Origin: a virus
Reading direction: 5' to 3' (one strand)
IMG/VR virus record: IMGVR_UViG_3300044449_000227
Length of the DNA stretch: 64,000 nt
Under the pieces are notes generated by a model, which was not told the origin of the DNA, did no database searches, and saw only the letters and a program-made list of their open reading frames with translations. Of this stretch, positions 52,623 through 58,578 are shown one piece after another (the stretch's first letter is position 1; the number at the start of each line of letters is the position of its first letter). Position numbers and translations under genes: made by a program.

Positions 52623-53861
52623 GTGGCGGGCCTCGCCGATACCGCGCCCGTCGCCGAGCCCGTCGTCTTCCGCGAGGCGATCGACTTCCTGCGGAACAAG
52701 CTGCGCCTGCCGACGCGCGCCTGGACGGACCTGTGGGGAGAGCAGCACGCCCGCGCCTTCGTCGTCGCCGGCGCCACGCGCGACGCGCTGCTGGCCGACT
52801 TCCAGGGCGCGCTCCTGAAGTCGATGGAGGAGGGCCGGCCCTTCGCCGACTTCCTGGCCGACTTCGACCGCATCGTCGAGACCCACGGCTGGTCCTACCG
52901 CGGCGGCCGCACCTGGCGGGCGCGGACGATCTTCCAGGCCAACCTGCGCTCGGCCCACATGGCCGGCCGTTGGCGCCAGATCCAGCGCACGGCGGCACGC
53001 CGCCCCTATCTGCGCTACGTCCAGGTGCAGCGGGAGACCAAGCGCGAGGCGCACGCCCCCTGGCACGGGCTGATCCTGCCGATCGAGCACCCCTTCTGGC
53101 GGTCCCACTTCCCGCCCAACGGCTGGTACTGCCTCTGCTCGGTCCAGACGGTCAGCGAGCGGGAGCTGCGCCGGCGGGGCTGGAAGGTCTCGGCCGAGGC
53201 GCCGGCCGTCGCCCTGCGCCAGGTCACGCTCAACACGCCGGACGGCCCGGCGACGGTCCAGGTGCCCGAGGGCATCGATCCCGGCTGGGGCCACAACGCC
53301 GGCCTGGCCGCCTACGGCTACGGCAACCAGCGCCTGGCGCTCGCAGGGCACGAGGGCCGCTGGGAGCCGCTGATCGCGCCCAGCCAGGTGGCGGAGGGAG
53401 GAGCCGGCCCGCTCGAGCCGCAGACGCCGCGCGGCCGGGTCCTGCCGCGCAACGACGGCCGCGGCGCCCGCGAGATCCTGCGGGACGTCCTGGGGGGAGA
53501 CGAGGCGACGTTCGAGGACCCGGCCGGCGGCATCGTCTCGGTCGGGCCAGCGCTGGCCGACCACATCGCCCCGCGACCGGACGGCCGCGAACGGTACCTG
53601 CCGCTGCTGCCTGAACTGATCGAAGACCCGCAGGAGATCTGGGTCGGCTTCGCGGTGAATTCCGGGACCGGCCAAGTTGCGCTGCGCCGACGCTACGTCA
53701 AGCTTCTGCAGCTGCGGCGTGACACGGTGCTCGGCCTGGTGGCCGACGCCGACAACGGCAGCTTCAGTGGCCTGACCTTCTTCCGCGGCCAGGTGAGCGG
53801 GGCGCGGCGCCTTCGGTGGGGGCTGCCTGTCTATCAACTGGGTGACGAGGGCCGATCATAA
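52623..53861 (+). CDS. MuF (gp30) head morphogenesis protein with C-terminal PBECR-like nuclease-fold domain
   Basis: FVVAGA, RTIFQAN, PPNGWYCLC and IDPGW; C-terminal RERYLPLLPELIEDPQEIW...RRRYVK...GLTFF. Confidence 0.88.
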   Translation: MAGLADTAPVAEPVVFREAIDFLRNKLRLPTRAWTDLWGEQHARAFVVAGATRDALLADFQGALLKSMEEGRPFADFLADFDRIVETHGWSYRGGRTWRARTIFQANLRSAHMAGRWRQIQRTAARRPYLRYVQVQRETKREAHAPWHGLILPIEHPFWRSHFPPNGWYCLCSVQTVSERELRRRGWKVSAEAPAVALRQVTLNTPDGPATVQVPEGIDPGWGHNAGLAAYGYGNQRLALAGHEGRWEPLIAPSQVAEGGAGPLEPQTPRGRVLPRNDGRGAREILRDVLGGDEATFEDPAGGIVSVGPALADHIAPRPDGRERYLPLLPELIEDPQEIWVGFAVNSGTGQVALRRRYVKLLQLRRDTVLGLVADADNGSFSGLTFFRGQVSGARRLRWGLPVYQLGDEGRS

Positions 53862-53925
53862 TTCCTGACGGGGGCAGCTCTGTAGGGAACGATAGCAGCT
53901 CATGCTGCCCGCCTTAACAACTCGG

Positions 53926-56817
53926 TCATTCAGTATTACTCTTTGACTTCGCCTGATAATAAATACTGTCTAAACTCACAAAATTCGGGCTCCTTATTCG
54001 GAAAATTTCGGCTGCGATCTTTTCGTCACTCATCCCTAAACGCGGAAGTCTATGAGGAGAATGAACAAGACGTGTTGCGATGGCAACCTGCCCCTCCACA
54101 TCAAATTTATCAAGATAATTTCCCCAAGCATACAACATAAAAATAATATTAGTATATCTGTGTAAGACTAAATAAACGAACACGAAGCAAGAAAAAAGGC
54201 CGCTTAAAGCACTAAAAATTATAAAAATGTATTGCATTTTCAAAGAACGGCCTGGAATGTTTATCAATATACTTGCATCTGTCAGTTCTACGCTAATTTC
54301 TAGGTATGAAACCATGGTAAAAATTATTGACATAAAGAAGGAATAAAACATCACTGCCGTTGCATATTTTTGAAATAGACGCATTTTAGTAAAATGCTCT
54401 GAACCAAATCCAAAAATTGATGTTAAATATGCAAAGATTGCAAATCTAGATAACGTGATTTCTAACAAAATAATTATCCTGATATTCATATGTATGAAAA
54501 GACTTTCAATTGGCGTAAGGGTGCGAGGGAATTCTTCGCCGACAATTTGGCAATAAAATTTGCATGCAACGGGAATATTTTTAGTTACAATAAGCGCATT
54601 AGTGCGATTTATTTTCGCTATTGAATCCCAGACCGGATCAGCCTTCTTGATATCAACTAAAGACACTGTCGCTAAAGCAACAAAATATTCAAAAAACTGC
54701 TTGTGCGCAAATCGAAGATAGCCATCTCCAGTAACGGGATCAGGTATTAAAAGTCCTGCGCTGCAAATTTCGTTCGTTATTATTTCAATACGATCAGACA
54801 GTGATTTGTTATTATGCGTATTTTCAAATTCACTTAAAGATATAGAAACATCACGAGCAACATTATTTGATTTTCCGTATTTAAAAAGCGACTCATATAT
54901 ACTTGCAATATATTCAAATATTTCCGATCTAGAAATTGTATTCTGATATCCTTTTTCTGCCATAAGCCATGCGACACCTCCGGTCAGCAATTTTCGTACT
55001 GAGGTATTAAAGAGTAAATATCGCGACGCACTTGGGGCGCCAAATTCTATTTGATCTTTCTGGAGTTCGGCTTCCTTACGCTTAAAGCTCGCGTCAATGT
55101 AAAGCCCAATCAAATTTGCGCCATTTACCCCGATGCCTTCATTTAGTTTTTTCCTGAGCGTAGGCCAGATAGTTGCTACCACGGGCAACATCGAGGGCCG
55201 TGATAAGATCTCTGCAAAGCTTTCGTCAGCCGCAATCAAGGAGACAATACCGGTCCGCACGGTCTCTGGATAATCCCGGCAAGCTCTTCCGATCTGTGCC
55301 CGCGAGAGCGGCTGAAGACGAAAAACTGTTGTAAAGACCCCGCCGTCGCCACCTCGAAGCGGGTGATGCCGCAAAGTTCGGTTGGCTTCAGCGTCGTCAA
55401 TAAAAAAGTTCGGGCGTCCCGTGAAAATAACTTTTACACCGTCGTAAGCAAAGCGCCAAAGTGCGTTAAAATGATTGAAGCGATCGTATTCGCGACCAGC
55501 CCCGCGCAATTCGTCAAAACCTTCAAAGATGACTACTGCGTCACCCGAGCGAATGAGATTGAAGATTTGGCCTGGATTCAACCTATATCGCACGCACCAT
55601 GCGGCCAAGAATGACAAAGGGTCGTTTTCCGTTGGGTTCCGGCCGCGCAGCTCGATCAAAAGTGGCACGCGCTTGCCCTGCGCCTCGCCATTGAGATGCG
55701 CTTTAGCCCACTCGGCGCAGTATTTGAGCATAGCGCTGCTCTTGCCTTGCCCGTATTCGCCGGTTATCGCGAGGTGGCGACGAGAATGTTCGCTTTCCCA
55801 ATCTCTCAAGACCTCAAACAGCGGCCTCGGCTGGGCGTCTCGGTCGCCAGCTTCTATAACGCTTAATTCCACGTAGGATCGAGCCAGTGTCGATAGAGTG
55901 CCGCCGATTGGATCTGATTCAAATGCCGCCAGCAATCGCCTCGCATAGAAATCCAGGTCCAGCGCGTTTTTGACAAGTGAACGCGAGCTAAATATCTGAA
56001 CTTTACGGCCTGCGGCCTGAATTATTAAGTCGTCTTCAACAGCTTCTGATCCGGACGGATAAACTGCAAATATCTGTGTCTCAGGATTTTCCACTTCTCC
56101 ATTAAGCTGCAGCAGACGACCTTGAAGCTCCTCTTTTGTTGGGGCGTCTCTGCAAACCAGTAGTAGAAGCGGTTTAATTTGCCTGCCGGCGCGCTCGGCT
56201 ATATCGCCGACCCACAGATTCGACGCCGCGCGCCAGCCGTCATCGGAAATTGATGCTTCGGAAAAGCGGGCTAGAAACAGATCCCGCATTAGGACCCAGG
56301 TCGGCACAGGACGCGGTACTTCGGGTTCGCGGTTACGCCAATCTGGAATCAGATCGCTAGCAGGTAAGTCTGGAGGTTTGCCCTGAAGCTGCTGCAAGAG
56401 CGTGGCGAACCCGTTGCGCGCAAGAGGTAGTAGCTTGTCGTCTTCCAGGTCTTCTGCGAGCTGCTTCTCCGAGACTCTAAGCGGTGCGTCCCAGTTCTTG
56501 ATCGTGTCTGAGCCGAAGCGGCTGATGCGATAGGCCACGAAGCCGACGAAACCAAAGAGCAGAAGCAACGAACCGAAATCCGGCACGAGGCCATCCGCGG
56601 GCAGGCCAACATACTCAAGCAGGTTTCCCAGAAGGAGTTGTGGAAATCCGACACCCGCGGCGAGCAACCCGGCTGTCACGCAGGTCACGAGTGCGGACAG
56701 CACAGCGAGCGCAAATCGGCTCTTGGACGCACGCATTCGCCAGCGCATCCACAAGACCGCCAAAACCAAAACACTGAAGGCTGCGACGAAGAGCCAGAAG
56801 GCCCAGGCAATACTCAT
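53926..56817 (-). CDS. NACHT/STAND NTPase with N- and C-terminal transmembrane helices
   Basis: Walker A GEYGQGKS, Walker B VIFEGFDE, IFTGRPNFF, SRPSML and LRFAHKQFFEYFVA; about 3 TMs at each end; low GC. Confidence 0.88.
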   Translation of the reverse strand: MSIAWAFWLFVAAFSVLVLAVLWMRWRMRASKSRFALAVLSALVTCVTAGLLAAGVGFPQLLLGNLLEYVGLPADGLVPDFGSLLLLFGFVGFVAYRISRFGSDTIKNWDAPLRVSEKQLAEDLEDDKLLPLARNGFATLLQQLQGKPPDLPASDLIPDWRNREPEVPRPVPTWVLMRDLFLARFSEASISDDGWRAASNLWVGDIAERAGRQIKPLLLLVCRDAPTKEELQGRLLQLNGEVENPETQIFAVYPSGSEAVEDDLIIQAAGRKVQIFSSRSLVKNALDLDFYARRLLAAFESDPIGGTLSTLARSYVELSVIEAGDRDAQPRPLFEVLRDWESEHSRRHLAITGEYGQGKSSAMLKYCAEWAKAHLNGEAQGKRVPLLIELRGRNPTENDPLSFLAAWCVRYRLNPGQIFNLIRSGDAVVIFEGFDELRGAGREYDRFNHFNALWRFAYDGVKVIFTGRPNFFIDDAEANRTLRHHPLRGGDGGVFTTVFRLQPLSRAQIGRACRDYPETVRTGIVSLIAADESFAEILSRPSMLPVVATIWPTLRKKLNEGIGVNGANLIGLYIDASFKRKEAELQKDQIEFGAPSASRYLLFNTSVRKLLTGGVAWLMAEKGYQNTISRSEIFEYIASIYESLFKYGKSNNVARDVSISLSEFENTHNNKSLSDRIEIITNEICSAGLLIPDPVTGDGYLRFAHKQFFEYFVALATVSLVDIKKADPVWDSIAKINRTNALIVTKNIPVACKFYCQIVGEEFPRTLTPIESLFIHMNIRIIILLEITLSRFAIFAYLTSIFGFGSEHFTKMRLFQKYATAVMFYSFFMSIIFTMVSYLEISVELTDASILINIPGRSLKMQYIFIIFSALSGLFSCFVFVYLVLHRYTNIIFMLYAWGNYLDKFDVEGQVAIATRLVHSPHRLPRLGMSDEKIAAEIFRIRSPNFVSLDSIYYQAKSKSNTE

Positions 56818-57269
56818 GAACACGCCCCATCTTCTTGCAGAGACCGCACCTACCGGCGCCTCTTGCAACCAATCATAGAACGTTATCAAAGCATGATGGA
56901 TGAGACTAGACGGCCCGGCCGCCATCCGTCGCACGGGCGCGGCGGCTCTCGGGGACCGGCCCAGCCGCCGCCGGCACGCGATCCAGATTTAGCTCCTCTC
57001 ACTAGCCAAATCCAGAAAGCTCCGAGAACGCTCGCTGACGGCCTCTGAGAGGCCGGCCGCTCCCACCAGGCCGGGCGAGCCCCAGACCGCGTTACAACGG
57101 CCGTTACACCCGAGTCGCGGGGGCGATTTCGCGCGCCCGAACCCCGGCCGCGGCGACCTGGGTGCCGAATGGCGGTCCGAAGACCCGATCCGCAGCAGTT
57201 CAGGGCGAGATCCGGAGGGGCATTCCGGGGGGCCGGGTGCCGCGCGGCAGCCGGCACCTGGCGCCAATA

Positions 57270-57291
57270 CCTTCCCACTGGAGTGGGAAGG
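57270..57291. promoter_or_regulatory. Late-promoter palindrome 2
   Basis: CCTTCCCACT-GG-AGTGGGAAGG upstream of the protease operon; same arms as 46799-46820. Confidence 0.75.
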
Positions 57292-57384
57292 GACCGTCCC
57301 CGCCGCACCCGGCCACTATCCGCCACGACGGCCGGGCGGTCCAGCCCGGCGCAGAGACCCACAAAGCGGGACCCGCGGCGGGCC

Positions 57385-58578
57385 ATGCCACTCGGCGAGA
57401 GCATCCAGACGACGACGGCGCTGTGCGCGTCCCTGCCGCTTGCGGCGGGCGGCGGCGCGCCGGAGTGGGTGCAGCTGATGCCGCGCCCGGCGGACGGGCG
57501 CCTGGAGGCGGCGGACGGCCGCAAGTGGCACCTCGGCGACGCCGCCAAGGTGGTCGCCGCCAGCGGACGGCCGGGTGTCGACCTGGTCTTCGACTACGAG
57601 CACCAGACGCACCTGGCCACCGAGAACGGCCAGCCCGCGCCGGCGGCCGGCTGGATCAAGGAGCTGCAGGCCCGCCAGGACGGGATCTGGGCGCGGGTCG
57701 AGTGGACCGACAAGGCCCGCCGCATGATCGAGGCGCGCGAGTACCGCTACCTCTCGCCGACCTTCTCCCACGCCAAGGACGGCGAGGTGCTGCAGATCCT
57801 CAGCGCCGCGCTGACCAACGACCCCGCGCTGCAGGTGCGCGCCCTCGCGTCGCGGCAGCCCGACCCGCGACCGACCGACCCCTCCCCGAACGGAGACGAG
57901 ACCATGGACAAGCAGCAGCTGGCGGCCCTCTGCAAGGCGCTCGGCCTGAAGGAGGACGCCCAGCCCGACGCCATCGTCAAGGCGGCGAGCGACCAGGCCG
58001 CGGCCGTGAAGACGGCGCAGGAGGCGGCCGAGACCGCGAAGGCCAAGGCGGAGCCCGGCGGCGCGAAGGCCGGCGAGGACGGCGGGGCGCAGGCGGCGAC
58101 CGGGGCCGCGCTGGCGTCGATCGCCAAGGCCGCCGGCCTCGCCGAGGACGCCGAGCCCGAGGCGGTGGCCACCGCCGTGGCGGGCCGCCTCAAGCCCGGC
58201 GCCAGCGTGCCGGCCGAGCAGTACAACGCGCTGGCCAAGCGCCTGGACACGCTGGAGGGCGAGCGCTCGACCGAGAAGGCCGAGGAGGCGGTCGAGGCCG
58301 CGGTGCGCGCCGGCAAGGTCGTGCCCAGCCAGAGGGACTGGGCGCTCGGCTACGCCAAGGCCGACCCGGAGGGCTTCGCTGCCTTCTGCAAGGCGCAGCC
58401 GGCGATCGTGAAGCCCGGCAGCGAGATCACCGGGCGGCCGCCGCGGGAAACCGGCGGTCCGCTCGACCAGGCCCAGGTCGCGCTCTGCCGGCAGCTCGGC
58501 CTCGATCAGGAGGCCTACAAGAAAACCCTGGATGCCGAGGCCAAGGCCGCCGAGGCGCGTGAGCAGGAGATCGCCTGA
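57385..58578 (+). CDS. Mu gp32 protease I with internal scaffold (Z) start at 57904
   Basis: PEWVQLMP, DYEHQT, PAAGWI, EYRYLSP and ALTNDP; internal RBS plus ATG at 57904. Confidence 0.92.
   Translation: MPLGESIQTTTALCASLPLAAGGGAPEWVQLMPRPADGRLEAADGRKWHLGDAAKVVAASGRPGVDLVFDYEHQTHLATENGQPAPAAGWIKELQARQDGIWARVEWTDKARRMIEAREYRYLSPTFSHAKDGEVLQILSAALTNDPALQVRALASRQPDPRPTDPSPNGDETMDKQQLAALCKALGLKEDAQPDAIVKAASDQAAAVKTAQEAAETAKAKAEPGGAKAGEDGGAQAATGAALASIAKAAGLAEDAEPEAVATAVAGRLKPGASVPAEQYNALAKRLDTLEGERSTEKAEEAVEAAVRAGKVVPSQRDWALGYAKADPEGFAAFCKAQPAIVKPGSEITGRPPRETGGPLDQAQVALCRQLGLDQEAYKKTLDAEAKAAEAREQEIA

Follow-up and report, generated by a model that had tools for sequence, protein, structure and literature searches.

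The window analysed here (the whole stretch of viral DNA, 64,000 nucleotides) contains, within the head-gene block of a Mu-like prophage, a gene for a protein, P0001, that combines membrane helices with a NACHT NTPase. What is such a protein, and could its gene be an anti-phage system carried by the prophage, as had been proposed from a sequence-only reading? That reading started from a single antisense ORF of about 963 aa beginning at the ATG at 56817, and the translation bears it out: the 963-aa translation of 53926-56817 (minus strand) is stop-free, forming one intact ORF in a 2,892-nt frame. An alternative in-frame GTG lies upstream at 56934 and would give 1002 aa; homologues of P0001 begin at most a few residues from the ATG position, which favours the ATG. 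Full-length homologues (104 sequences) are about 920-990 aa long. Coordinates are collected in Table 1.

Table 1. Positions in the window of the P0001 gene, its parts and its surroundings.
Feature	Position	Strand	Basis or remark
Membrane-embedded NACHT protein gene P0001	53926..56817	-	Open frame and translation; complete, 963 aa
Conserved 3-TM module, aa 1-105	56503..56817	-	Hydropathy, column conservation
Helical linker, aa 106-170	56308..56502	-	Conserved W109, L120, D150, P168; AF2 model
Pre-NACHT alpha/beta domain, aa about 171-300	55918..56307	-	PD-(D/E)xK fold, catalytically degenerate
NACHT module, aa about 335-720	54658..55815	-	Invariant columns, Foldseek PDB
Walker A GEYGQGKS, aa 353-360	55738-55761	-	G353, G356, G358, K359, S360 invariant in 81 sequences
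Winged-helix H705	54703-54705	-	Invariant column
Hypervariable C-terminal region, aa 721-963	53926..54657	-	Helices, TM hairpin 819-839 + 866-886, basic tail
Foreign insertion, about 3.06 kb	53840..56910	.	GC step, related prophages without insert
Left neighbour: MuF head protein + C-terminal PBECR2 nuclease-like domain	52623..53861	+	Pfam, PHROGs, BLASTP vs Tistlia
Right neighbour: Mu protease/scaffold I	57169..58578	+	Pfam Mu-like_Pro 5.9e-77; phrog_328

Architecture of P0001

The four motifs named in the sequence-only reading (GEYGQGKS, VIFEGFDE, TGRPNFF and RFAHKQFFEYF) are all present and fall on invariant columns of the family. The Walker B motif with its distal acidic pair, VVIFEGFDE (428-436), fits the hhhhD[GAS]hDE pattern, with Glu rather than Asp as the first acidic residue; E432, G433, F434, D435 and E436 are invariant in 81 family sequences, as is R468 of the sensor-1 motif TGRPNFF (466-472). 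The winged-helix motif FAHKQFFEY (703-711) is FxHxxxQE-like, and its H705, K706 and E710 are invariant. The AF2 model of P0001 (pLDDT 83.3, pTM 0.77) was compared with the PDB by Foldseek: ranks 1-48 were NOD2, NLRC4, NLRP3, NAIP5 and NLRP2/14 (E 4.9e-11 to 2e-5), the top matches being the NACHT modules of NOD2, NLRC4 and NLRP3, and by this comparison the NBD-HD1-WHD fold is nearest to NLR NACHT modules. The Pfam NACHT model (PF05729) scored 21.9 bits on P0001, under its cut-off of 26.7, and many homologues carry a precomputed PF05729 match; the family profile found no PDB sequence at E <= 0.01. The earlier assignment as a NACHT/STAND NTPase thus agrees with all four motifs and with the NLR-type fold found by Foldseek, and the model supports the view that P0001 is a true NACHT-fold STAND NTPase. 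The region after the winged helix is helical in the model, and no TPR, WD40 or LRR was found by Pfam or in the model, as had been noted.

Three N-terminal TM helices had been expected, and hydropathy finds them at 3-21, 35-57 and 77-97; 57 of 74 homologues also have three. The TM1-TM2 loop is basic (WMRWRMRASKSRFA), TM2 is rich in S/T/C/G, and a juxtamembrane motif, IYRFG, is present. This module is conserved at the sequence level, polar residues included, with S31, K32, F35, A36, I98 and F101 conserved at >=90% in the family. By the positive-inside rule, the N-terminus would lie outside and the NACHT in the cytoplasm, and the soluble parts of P0001 are all predicted to be cytoplasmic, beside the membrane.

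The segment before the NTPase, previously described only as globular, does form a domain, but its nature, an inactive restriction-endonuclease (REase) fold, had been missed. No Pfam model recognises it. With a sub-domain model (pLDDT 88.8), the best 50 VIA-align matches were nearly all REase-fold nucleases (Z 5-7.5 over model residues 62-180); matches of 85-106 residues included NucS, MspJI, FokI, AspBHI, Can2, Card1, HamA and McrC, with moderate Z and a near-uniform list, and the alpha-beta-beta-beta-alpha-beta core of the PD-(D/E)xK type is present in the alignments. Similarly, Atlas matches were McrBC, Mrr_cat and PDDEXK, one AFDB match to P0001 is named ‘NACHT-associated inactive REase 1’, and in many AFDB NACHT proteins residue about 5 aligns to P0001 residue about 173. 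The catalytic D...(D/E)xK is absent from P0001, which has A197, Q213 and K215 and lacks the (D/E)xK lysine (positions mapped through the model's secondary structure rather than by residue-level superposition). The position of A197 is D in 61 of 81 family members, and across these 81 no conserved (D/E)xK was found in strands 2-3. Because P0001 lacks the catalytic residues, we reject an active nuclease effector. With the REase fold dead and no other Pfam match, P0001 is left without an enzymatic effector, so that only the conserved TM module is a candidate for the output.

At the C-terminus, where about three TM helices had been proposed, hydropathy does give three segments (781-799, 819-839 and 866-886), but the modal count of the family is 3 N-terminal and 2 C-terminal TMs. 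Since segment 781-799 also carries E and R, it is probably not membrane-spanning, and the C-terminus of P0001 is probably a TM hairpin followed by a cytoplasmic tail. AF2 confidence is low over this region. Residues 1-720 are conserved, and the identity of P0001 to family members is 40-58% in the core vs about 11% in the C-terminal part, which is random level; the C-terminal length (193-274 aa) and the 2 TMs are nevertheless kept across the family. The region diverges far faster than the NACHT even among close relatives, with NACHT/C-terminal identities of 98%/62% and 92%/43% in two close pairs. For the C-terminal ~245 aa, P0002 is the only detectably similar protein (26%), and no other relatives were found among 5.8 billion proteins; a C-terminal cassette common to other proteins is thus unsupported. 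The earlier reading was right that both ends of P0001 are in the membrane but missed the division between a conserved N-terminal TM module and a hypervariable, sensor-like C-terminal part. Fixed length and topology with random-level sequence make this region resemble an NLR sensor in an arms race; the rapid divergence could also reflect relaxed constraint on a membrane anchor.

A foreign gene in the head-gene block

The gene was said to sit between MuF and protease I, and its neighbours are indeed a Mu portal, MuF with PBECR2, and Mu protease I by Pfam and PHROGs (in public gene calls on Logan contigs, protease I starts at about 57385 and has 397 aa). The P0001 gene lies on the strand opposite to the late head genes and has a GC content of 47% vs 73% in the flanks, with local values of 0.33-0.61 inside and 0.72-0.78 outside. 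In the Tistlia prophage, protease I comes about 350 bp after MuF (73% identical over its full length), without an insert, and this spacer aligns to the window from about 56905 to 57168. The F and I genes are adjacent in five related prophages (Tistlia, L008, L013, L014 and L016). The last 7 MuF codons differ from the Tistlia orthologue, so we place the left junction of the insertion at the MuF 3′ end. The proposal that the gene is cargo therefore stands: it is a foreign low-GC gene directly upstream of the protease/scaffold gene and absent from five related F-I junctions. The Tistlia orthologue keeps MuF and PBECR2 without a NACHT gene, and we rejected the NACHT gene as a partner of the toxin-like PBECR2 domain.

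The lower-GC stretch 56818-56910 probably holds the gene's own promoter, from which it could be expressed in the lysogen because it is antisense to the late head operon; a promoter consensus scan of this stretch gave no match, and no intrinsic terminator was found between the convergent MuF and NACHT genes. Among sequencing runs, the P0001 sequence is found only in DNA runs of mock communities, and in no RNA runs.

RGP G of Pseudomonas Mu-like phages reportedly occupies the position immediately upstream of the protease/scaffold gene. PMC4378225 places low-GC RGP G, with anti-CRISPR genes, in the head-gene block of these phages, and RGP H between the protease-scaffold and major head genes. The P0001 insertion resembles RGP G in its low GC and its place among the head genes of a Mu-like phage, and is absent from close relatives; it differs in carrying a single 2.9-kb gene, opposite in strand, where RGP G has small co-oriented anti-defence genes, and in phage lineage and host.

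The family and known systems

The family of P0001 comprises at least 369 clusters (50% identity) and keeps to one layout: three TMs, a linker, the inactive REase domain, the NACHT, and then about 250 aa with a TM hairpin. Family genes have a GC content below that of the host in 8 of 8 loci examined and are solitary, in changing contexts. The proposal of a one-gene system holds in that P0001 stands alone and no conserved operon partner was found in 11 homologue loci inspected. In a raw tally of these 11 loci, without a background control, neighbours include AbiD, toxin-antitoxin genes with TIR-CHAT, integrase, AlpA, PcfJ, a prophage end with a Dam methylase, and IS200 copies with HipA; two or three of the loci have purely housekeeping surroundings, with no defence gene within 10 kb. 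A link between the family and known defence genes is anecdotal. No family member was found in 50,697 GenBank phage records, IMG/VR or plasmids, so we rejected a phage-typical gene; the description as prophage-encoded is correct for P0001, whose gene is in a Mu-like prophage, but this is an exception for the family.

PADLOC had been put forward as a check on the defence role; PADLOC-DB v2 returned 0 families for P0001 at E <= 1, so the protein is not recognised by its defence models. An anti-phage role of bacterial NACHT proteins has been established by experiment (bioRxiv 10.1101/2022.07.19.500537), and ‘TM regions’ form a predicted bNACHT sensor class, for intramembrane or periplasmic signals (Kibby et al., bioRxiv 10.1101/2022.07.19.500537). 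P0001 is a form of this catalogued ‘bacterial NACHT with TM regions’, with a layout that none of the tested bNACHTs covered here has. It shares with the category (Kibby et al.; Kaur et al. 2020, PMC7159879) a central NACHT with all motifs and the NLR fold, a single gene, a tripartite layout, and TM helices C-terminal to the NACHT. Unlike these tested bNACHTs, P0001 has membrane at both ends (3 TM + 2 TM), and its N-terminal ‘effector’ position is taken by the conserved TM module and the dead REase fold. The family was not found in Kibby Table S1 by organism or architecture strings, and none of its members was seen among the tested genes in part 1 of 3 of Table S2, where bNACHT13, a TM-bearing protein of another family, has no defence entered (bioRxiv 10.1101/2022.07.19.500537). 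A PD-(D/E)xK fold directly N-terminal to the NACHT, as in P0001, is also found in REase/Mrr_cat + NACHT proteins (clade 2 of Kibby Table S1) and in the Pfam-style ‘NACHT-associated inactive REase’ proteins; P0001 differs in lacking the catalytic Asp and (D/E)xK, in the three TMs and linker that precede the domain, and in that the domain is Pfam-silent.

Avs (AVAST) proteins have a C-terminal TPR-like/helical-repeat sensor and an N-terminal enzymatic effector, and P0001 has neither: it contains no repeats, matches no Avs model, and the one enzyme-like fold it has is degenerate at the catalytic residues. Among oligomerisation-driven membrane effectors are the ZAR1-type NLR resistosomes of plants and the TM effectors of CBASS and other abortive infection systems. 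By analogy, P0001 may follow the logic of this group, in which a nucleotide switch oligomerises, N-terminal helices gather and the membrane is breached. It differs from all of them in having no sequence or fold kinship with them and in helices that are predicted to be constitutively membrane-integral, and a pore in P0001 is purely inferred.

Possible functions of P0001

Our preferred reading, which is plausible and unproven and which we would believe about as readily as doubt, is that the P0001 gene is a one-gene anti-phage system, a moron with its own promoter and a membrane-lesion mechanism. The gene would be a horizontally acquired, self-contained moron of the Mu-like prophage, and P0001 an integral inner-membrane switch of the NLR type, consisting of the 3-TM module, linker, dead REase, cytoplasmic NACHT, and fast-evolving TM hairpin with tail. 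The resting NACHT would hold ADP and be autoinhibited. An infecting phage would supply a cue at or in the inner membrane, to be read by the hypervariable hairpin and tail, possibly with nucleic acid bound by the inactive REase domain during sensing; nucleotide exchange in the NACHT and oligomerisation would follow. The conserved N-terminal TM modules, with a polar S/T/C/G face on TM2, might then cluster into a membrane lesion, so that the membrane potential collapses and the infection is aborted, protecting the lysogen population and the prophage.

Three other explanations have to be weighed against this one. P0001 may be a membrane signalling or stress-sensing NTPase unrelated to phages (e.g., an envelope monitor) that is in the prophage by chance: the family is mostly chromosomal and has no member in the phage collections, and some of the genes come immediately after priA, polA, uvrB or lepA, in surroundings that lack defence genes. 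We consider this rather improbable, since the patchy distribution, a GC content below that of every examined host, the absence of conserved neighbours, and the hypervariable C-terminus characterise mobile conflict genes rather than housekeeping sensors. Distinctly unlikely, in our view, is a superinfection-exclusion or entry-blocking factor that, with its dead REase fold just beneath the membrane, senses incoming DNA or the injection apparatus and blocks entry or signals without killing. Prophage morons do often exclude other phages, the REase-like domain follows closely after TM3, a structural relative in AFDB is annotated ‘sensor domain’, and the cytoplasmic, membrane-adjacent placement predicted for the soluble parts would suit such a role; however, what is conserved here is the REase fold with the N-terminal module, while arms-race recognition modules usually vary, and when STAND proteins oligomerise the outcome is as a rule destructive.

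The composition of the gene itself raises the third explanation, an inert passenger: a recent chimera, still open, whose 5′ part (1.8 kb) came from a mid-GC donor and whose 3′ part (1.1 kb) came from a low-GC one. Within the conserved NACHT module, near codon 600, GC3 drops from 0.5-0.7 to 0.2-0.3, and a step that large is seen in none of seven homologous genes (two have smaller local dips). The step points to a recent chimera, which might not be functional; the C-terminal 248 aa, for which P0002 is the only relative detected, point the same way. Against this, the frame is fully open over its whole length, the invariant family residues checked are all kept on both sides of the step, and the model is confident over the junction (pLDDT 78-95 for aa 580-700). 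No phylogenetic signal for recombination was found at the step: whichever segment is compared, the nearest relative is P0002, and thus the closest homologue is the same for both sides. We regard an inert gene as very unlikely.

A bolder form of the preferred anti-phage reading extends it to the whole family, as integral-membrane bacterial NLRs in which the hypervariable hairpin senses phage and NACHT oligomerisation turns the 3-TM modules into a nucleotide-gated pore; we think this rather unlikely to be right as a whole. The events recognised would be injection apparatus, holins or other phage membrane proteins in the inner membrane; the family would go back to a REase-NACHT protein that first gained a TM effector and then lost its nuclease effector by decay, and a transposable phage would have captured the gene to protect its lysogen. 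The NLR-like proteins known from bacteria sense phage proteins in the cytosol; such a pore would give prokaryotes a constitutively membrane-resident equivalent of the plant resistosomes. The family is large and has a fixed, simple layout with no enzymatic effector and no partner gene; therefore, if it defends, sensor and effector would both be membrane helices. It may thus offer a compact model for studying whether NLRs of prokaryotes detect infection at the membrane and whether they kill by pores, and the Mu-like prophage that captured it at a head-module site would provide a natural setting of lysogen vs superinfecting phage.

A foreign NACHT gene in a Mu-like prophage

We recovered the intact antisense ORF of ~963 aa that the sequence-only reading had described, and neighbouring gene annotation placed it, as claimed, between the MuF head protein gene (F) and the Mu protease/scaffold gene (I; Table). 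All four quoted NACHT motifs were found in its product (P0001), each on invariant columns of the 81-sequence family alignment: the Walker A residues G353, G356, G358, K359, and S360; E432-G433-F434-D435-E436; G467-R468-P469; and H705-K706 with E710. With ORF, motifs and neighbours confirmed, that observation was correct; three N-terminal TM helices also stood, but the three proposed at the C-terminus are refined to two, the family norm. Kyte-Doolittle windows give hydrophobic segments in P0001 at residues 3-21, 35-57, 77-97, 781-799, 819-839, and 866-886. An upstream in-frame GTG would lengthen the ORF to 1002 aa, unlike the full-length homologues, which start within a few residues of the P0001 ATG.

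Table. Features of the NACHT gene region, a related prophage (L016), and loci of family homologues
Feature	Location	Strand	Remarks
Left of NACHT gene		(+)	Mu gp27, large terminase, Mu portal, MuF fused to PBECR2 nuclease-like domain
MuF gene	52623-53861	(+)	PBECR2 domain C-terminal
NACHT gene	53926-56817	(-)	ATG 56817; stop 53926-53928; 963 open codons
Upstream GTG	56934		in frame
GC3 drop	~55017		codon ~600
Insert	~53840-56910
Near-repeat, left copy	53800-53812		GGGCGCGGCGCCT
Near-repeat, right copy	56935-56947		GGGCGCGGCGGCT
Match to Tistlia F-I spacer	~56905-57168
Right of NACHT gene		(+)	Mu protease/scaffold I, gp36, Phage_tail_S protein
Portal-to-MuF gap	L016:2200-6150		Caulobacteraceae Mu-like prophage; ~4 kb
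Homologue locus	L001		Nitrosomonas oligotropha; toxin-antitoxin pair directly upstream; TIR-CHAT-TPR protein 8.5 kb downstream
262-aa ORF	L001:12837-13625		start overlaps homologue stop
Homologue locus	L003		Pseudoalteromonas; AbiD gene directly downstream
Cluster after AbiD	L003:13275-21377		VWA / PP2C phosphatase / 900-aa protein
Homologue locus			prophage end with lysozyme and Dam-type methylase
Homologue locus			integrase close by
Homologue locus			AlpA and tail-like genes
Homologue locus			PcfJ
Homologue locus			three IS200 transposases and HipA

The NACHT gene is a foreign insertion in the prophage. GC content is 72-78% in the flanks; across the gene it falls from 61% (5′ end) to 33% (3′ end). 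In the closest related prophage among those retrieved, that of Tistlia consotensis, protease I follows MuF after ~350 bp, with no gene in the spacer, and F adjoins I in four further, more distant Mu-like prophages. The limits of the insert follow from the start of the alignable Tistlia spacer and from the last seven MuF codons, which differ between the two prophages. A direct near-repeat (12/13 nt, copies spaced 3135 bp) flanks the insert, and may be junction microhomology or chance in such GC-rich DNA. The identical protein occurs on seven public contigs, from one mock-community run set, all within this prophage.

The Tistlia MuF is 73% identical to that of the window over its entire length, PBECR2 included; since this fusion occurs there without a NACHT gene, we rejected MuF-PBECR2 and NACHT as a functional pair. 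No immunity gene for the PBECR2 domain is obvious. The portal-to-MuF gap in the Caulobacteraceae prophage is absent from the other prophages, and its GC matches the remainder of that prophage.

The sequence-only reading had also invoked fixed accessory-gene hotspots in Mu-like phages. This idea is reasonable on the view that region RGP G of Pseudomonas Mu-like phages lies directly upstream of the protease/scaffold gene. RGP G is a low-GC plasticity region of the head-gene block that holds anti-CRISPR genes, and RGP H separates the protease-scaffold from the major head genes (PMC4378225).

GC3 is 0.72 over codons 1-110 of the NACHT gene, 0.52-0.55 to codon 600, 0.23 over codons 600-720, and 0.32 onward to the end, the drop (from 0.5-0.7 to 0.2-0.3) being abrupt. 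None of seven homologous genes has a step that large (two show smaller local dips), which suggests that the gene is a recent recombinant of mid-GC and low-GC family members. Phylogenetic evidence for this recombination was not found, the nearest relative (P0002) being the same on either side of the step. The drop falls within the conserved winged-helix region, away from the border of the variable part, and is not suggestive of a simple “sensor swap”.

NACHT fold and degenerate nuclease domain

The NACHT domain of P0001 is barely visible to sequence methods: its Pfam score (21.9 bits) is under the cut-off of 26.7, NCBIfam and PADLOC searches returned no match, and the family profile matched no PDB chain. 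Structural comparison bore out the domain. The AlphaFold2 model (81-sequence alignment as input; pLDDT 83.3, pTM 0.77) is weak only past residue ~780, and Foldseek against the PDB placed NOD2, NLRC4, NLRP3, NAIP5, and NLRP2/14 at ranks 1-48 (E down to 4.9e-11).

The segment before the NACHT, previously described as globular, is indeed present, and has a degenerate REase fold that is almost certainly inactive, judging from its model and the family alignment. Modelled alone (aa 108-338; pLDDT 88.8), its residues 169-287 matched, in an exhaustive comparison, almost exclusively PD-(D/E)xK nucleases (Z 5-7.5), including NucS, MspJI, FokI, AspBHI, Can2, Card1, HamA, and McrC; yet mapping the model strands onto the family alignment revealed no conserved (D/E)xK, and P0001 has Ala197 where 61 of 81 members have Asp. 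A shape search of the ESM-Atlas led to McrBC, Mrr_cat, and PDDEXK families, a language-model search gave, as a lead only, an Mrr_cat cluster (0.86), and one AFDB neighbour bears the name [quoted passage not shown]. Table S1 of Kibby et al. lists REase+NACHT and Mrr_cat+NACHT architectures (bioRxiv 10.1101/2022.07.19.500537); this suggests descent of the P0001 family from a protein of that type.

A widespread family with a hypervariable C-terminus

A word-indexed search retrieved 104 relatives of 920-990 aa (top identity 52%) from Alpha-, Beta-, and Gammaproteobacteria and one Bacteroidota MAG, the most informative annotation being “NACHT domain-containing protein”. Exhaustive HMMER comparison with 1.84 billion cluster representatives gave 1568 matches at E ≤ 1e-3, of which 369 passed E ≤ 1e-30; the matches were almost always restricted to query residues ~10-720. 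Among 219 retrieved sequences, the main architecture has three TM helices before the NACHT and two after; one sub-branch has four N-terminal helices.

Mean identity to P0001 is 28% in the TM module, 30% in both linker and REase fold, 58% in the NBD, 43% and 40% in the helical and winged-helix parts, and 11%, i.e., random level, in the final 245 residues. The C-terminal segment still keeps a length of 193-274 aa and two hydrophobic helices at fixed positions. In close pairs, divergence of the C-terminus greatly outpaces that of the NACHT (NACHT/C-terminal identities of 98%/62%, 92%/43%, and 88%/41%). Because identity declines gradually, whole-cassette exchange is not indicated. Among 5.8 billion proteins, the final 248 residues of P0001 matched P0002 (26%) and no other. 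In the N-terminal module, conservation extends to details such as a basic loop (W-M-R-W-R-M-x-A-S-K-x-R-F-A), a TM2 face rich in S/T/C/G, and a juxtamembrane I-Y-R-F-G. The positive-inside rule predicts a cytoplasmic location for the loop that follows TM1, the region behind TM3, and the C-terminal tail, which would place the REase fold and NACHT inside the cell. Most members carry a weakly conserved motif in this tail, G-x-V-x-F ... F-L-Y-P-A-x-x-F-G (last ~60 alignment columns); P0001 and P0002 lack it, suggesting at least two tail types.

The homologue gene is solitary in all 11 loci, with no neighbour repeating between them (Table; other loci are set among housekeeping genes), and its GC lies 2-26 points under the flanks in 8 of 8 loci measured. 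No member was found in IMG/VR, in 50,697 GenBank phage records, or in 72,556 plasmids. The family thus resembles a mobile chromosomal gene of xenogeneic origin, and for a prophage to have captured it, as in the window, is unusual. In L004, L023, and L025, members lie directly downstream of, and in the same orientation as, the replication or repair genes priA, polA, and uvrB; lepA is upstream in L006, and uvrA and ssb are within 10 kb in L024. This repeated priA/polA/uvrB proximity may reflect an integration preference or chance. The 262-aa ORF in L001 had no Pfam or PADLOC match, and the cluster after AbiD in L003 looks like another conflict system.

Possible function

P0001 contains no enzymatic effector, no partner gene is conserved with the family, and the two ends outside the NACHT both lie in the membrane. 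Read most economically, this architecture would follow NLR logic: sensing would fall to the hypervariable C-terminal hairpin and tail, the NACHT would be a nucleotide-dependent oligomerisation switch, and the conserved N-terminal TM module would provide the output, presumably a membrane lesion aborting infection. The antisense position within the late operon would fit expression in the lysogen. For Kibby et al., the sensing of intramembrane or periplasmic signals by TM regions is a prediction only; their tested-gene table includes a TM-bearing bacterial NACHT of another family, bNACHT13, with no defence recorded (bioRxiv 10.1101/2022.07.19.500537).

We consider an anti-phage defence function of P0001 an evenly balanced proposition. 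A membrane signalling role outside defence is unlikely, an exclusion or entry-blocking factor is a rather doubtful reading, and an inert chimera would be improbable.

P0001 belongs to a catalogued kind, the bacterial NACHT proteins with TM regions. What is new is the specific, very widespread architecture (3TM, inactive REase, NACHT, TM hairpin), the contrast between membrane parts that are conserved at the N-terminus and hypervariable at the C-terminus, and the occurrence of a family gene as a moron within a Mu-like head module. Although no first-rank surprise, the P0001 family is a good candidate for experiments.
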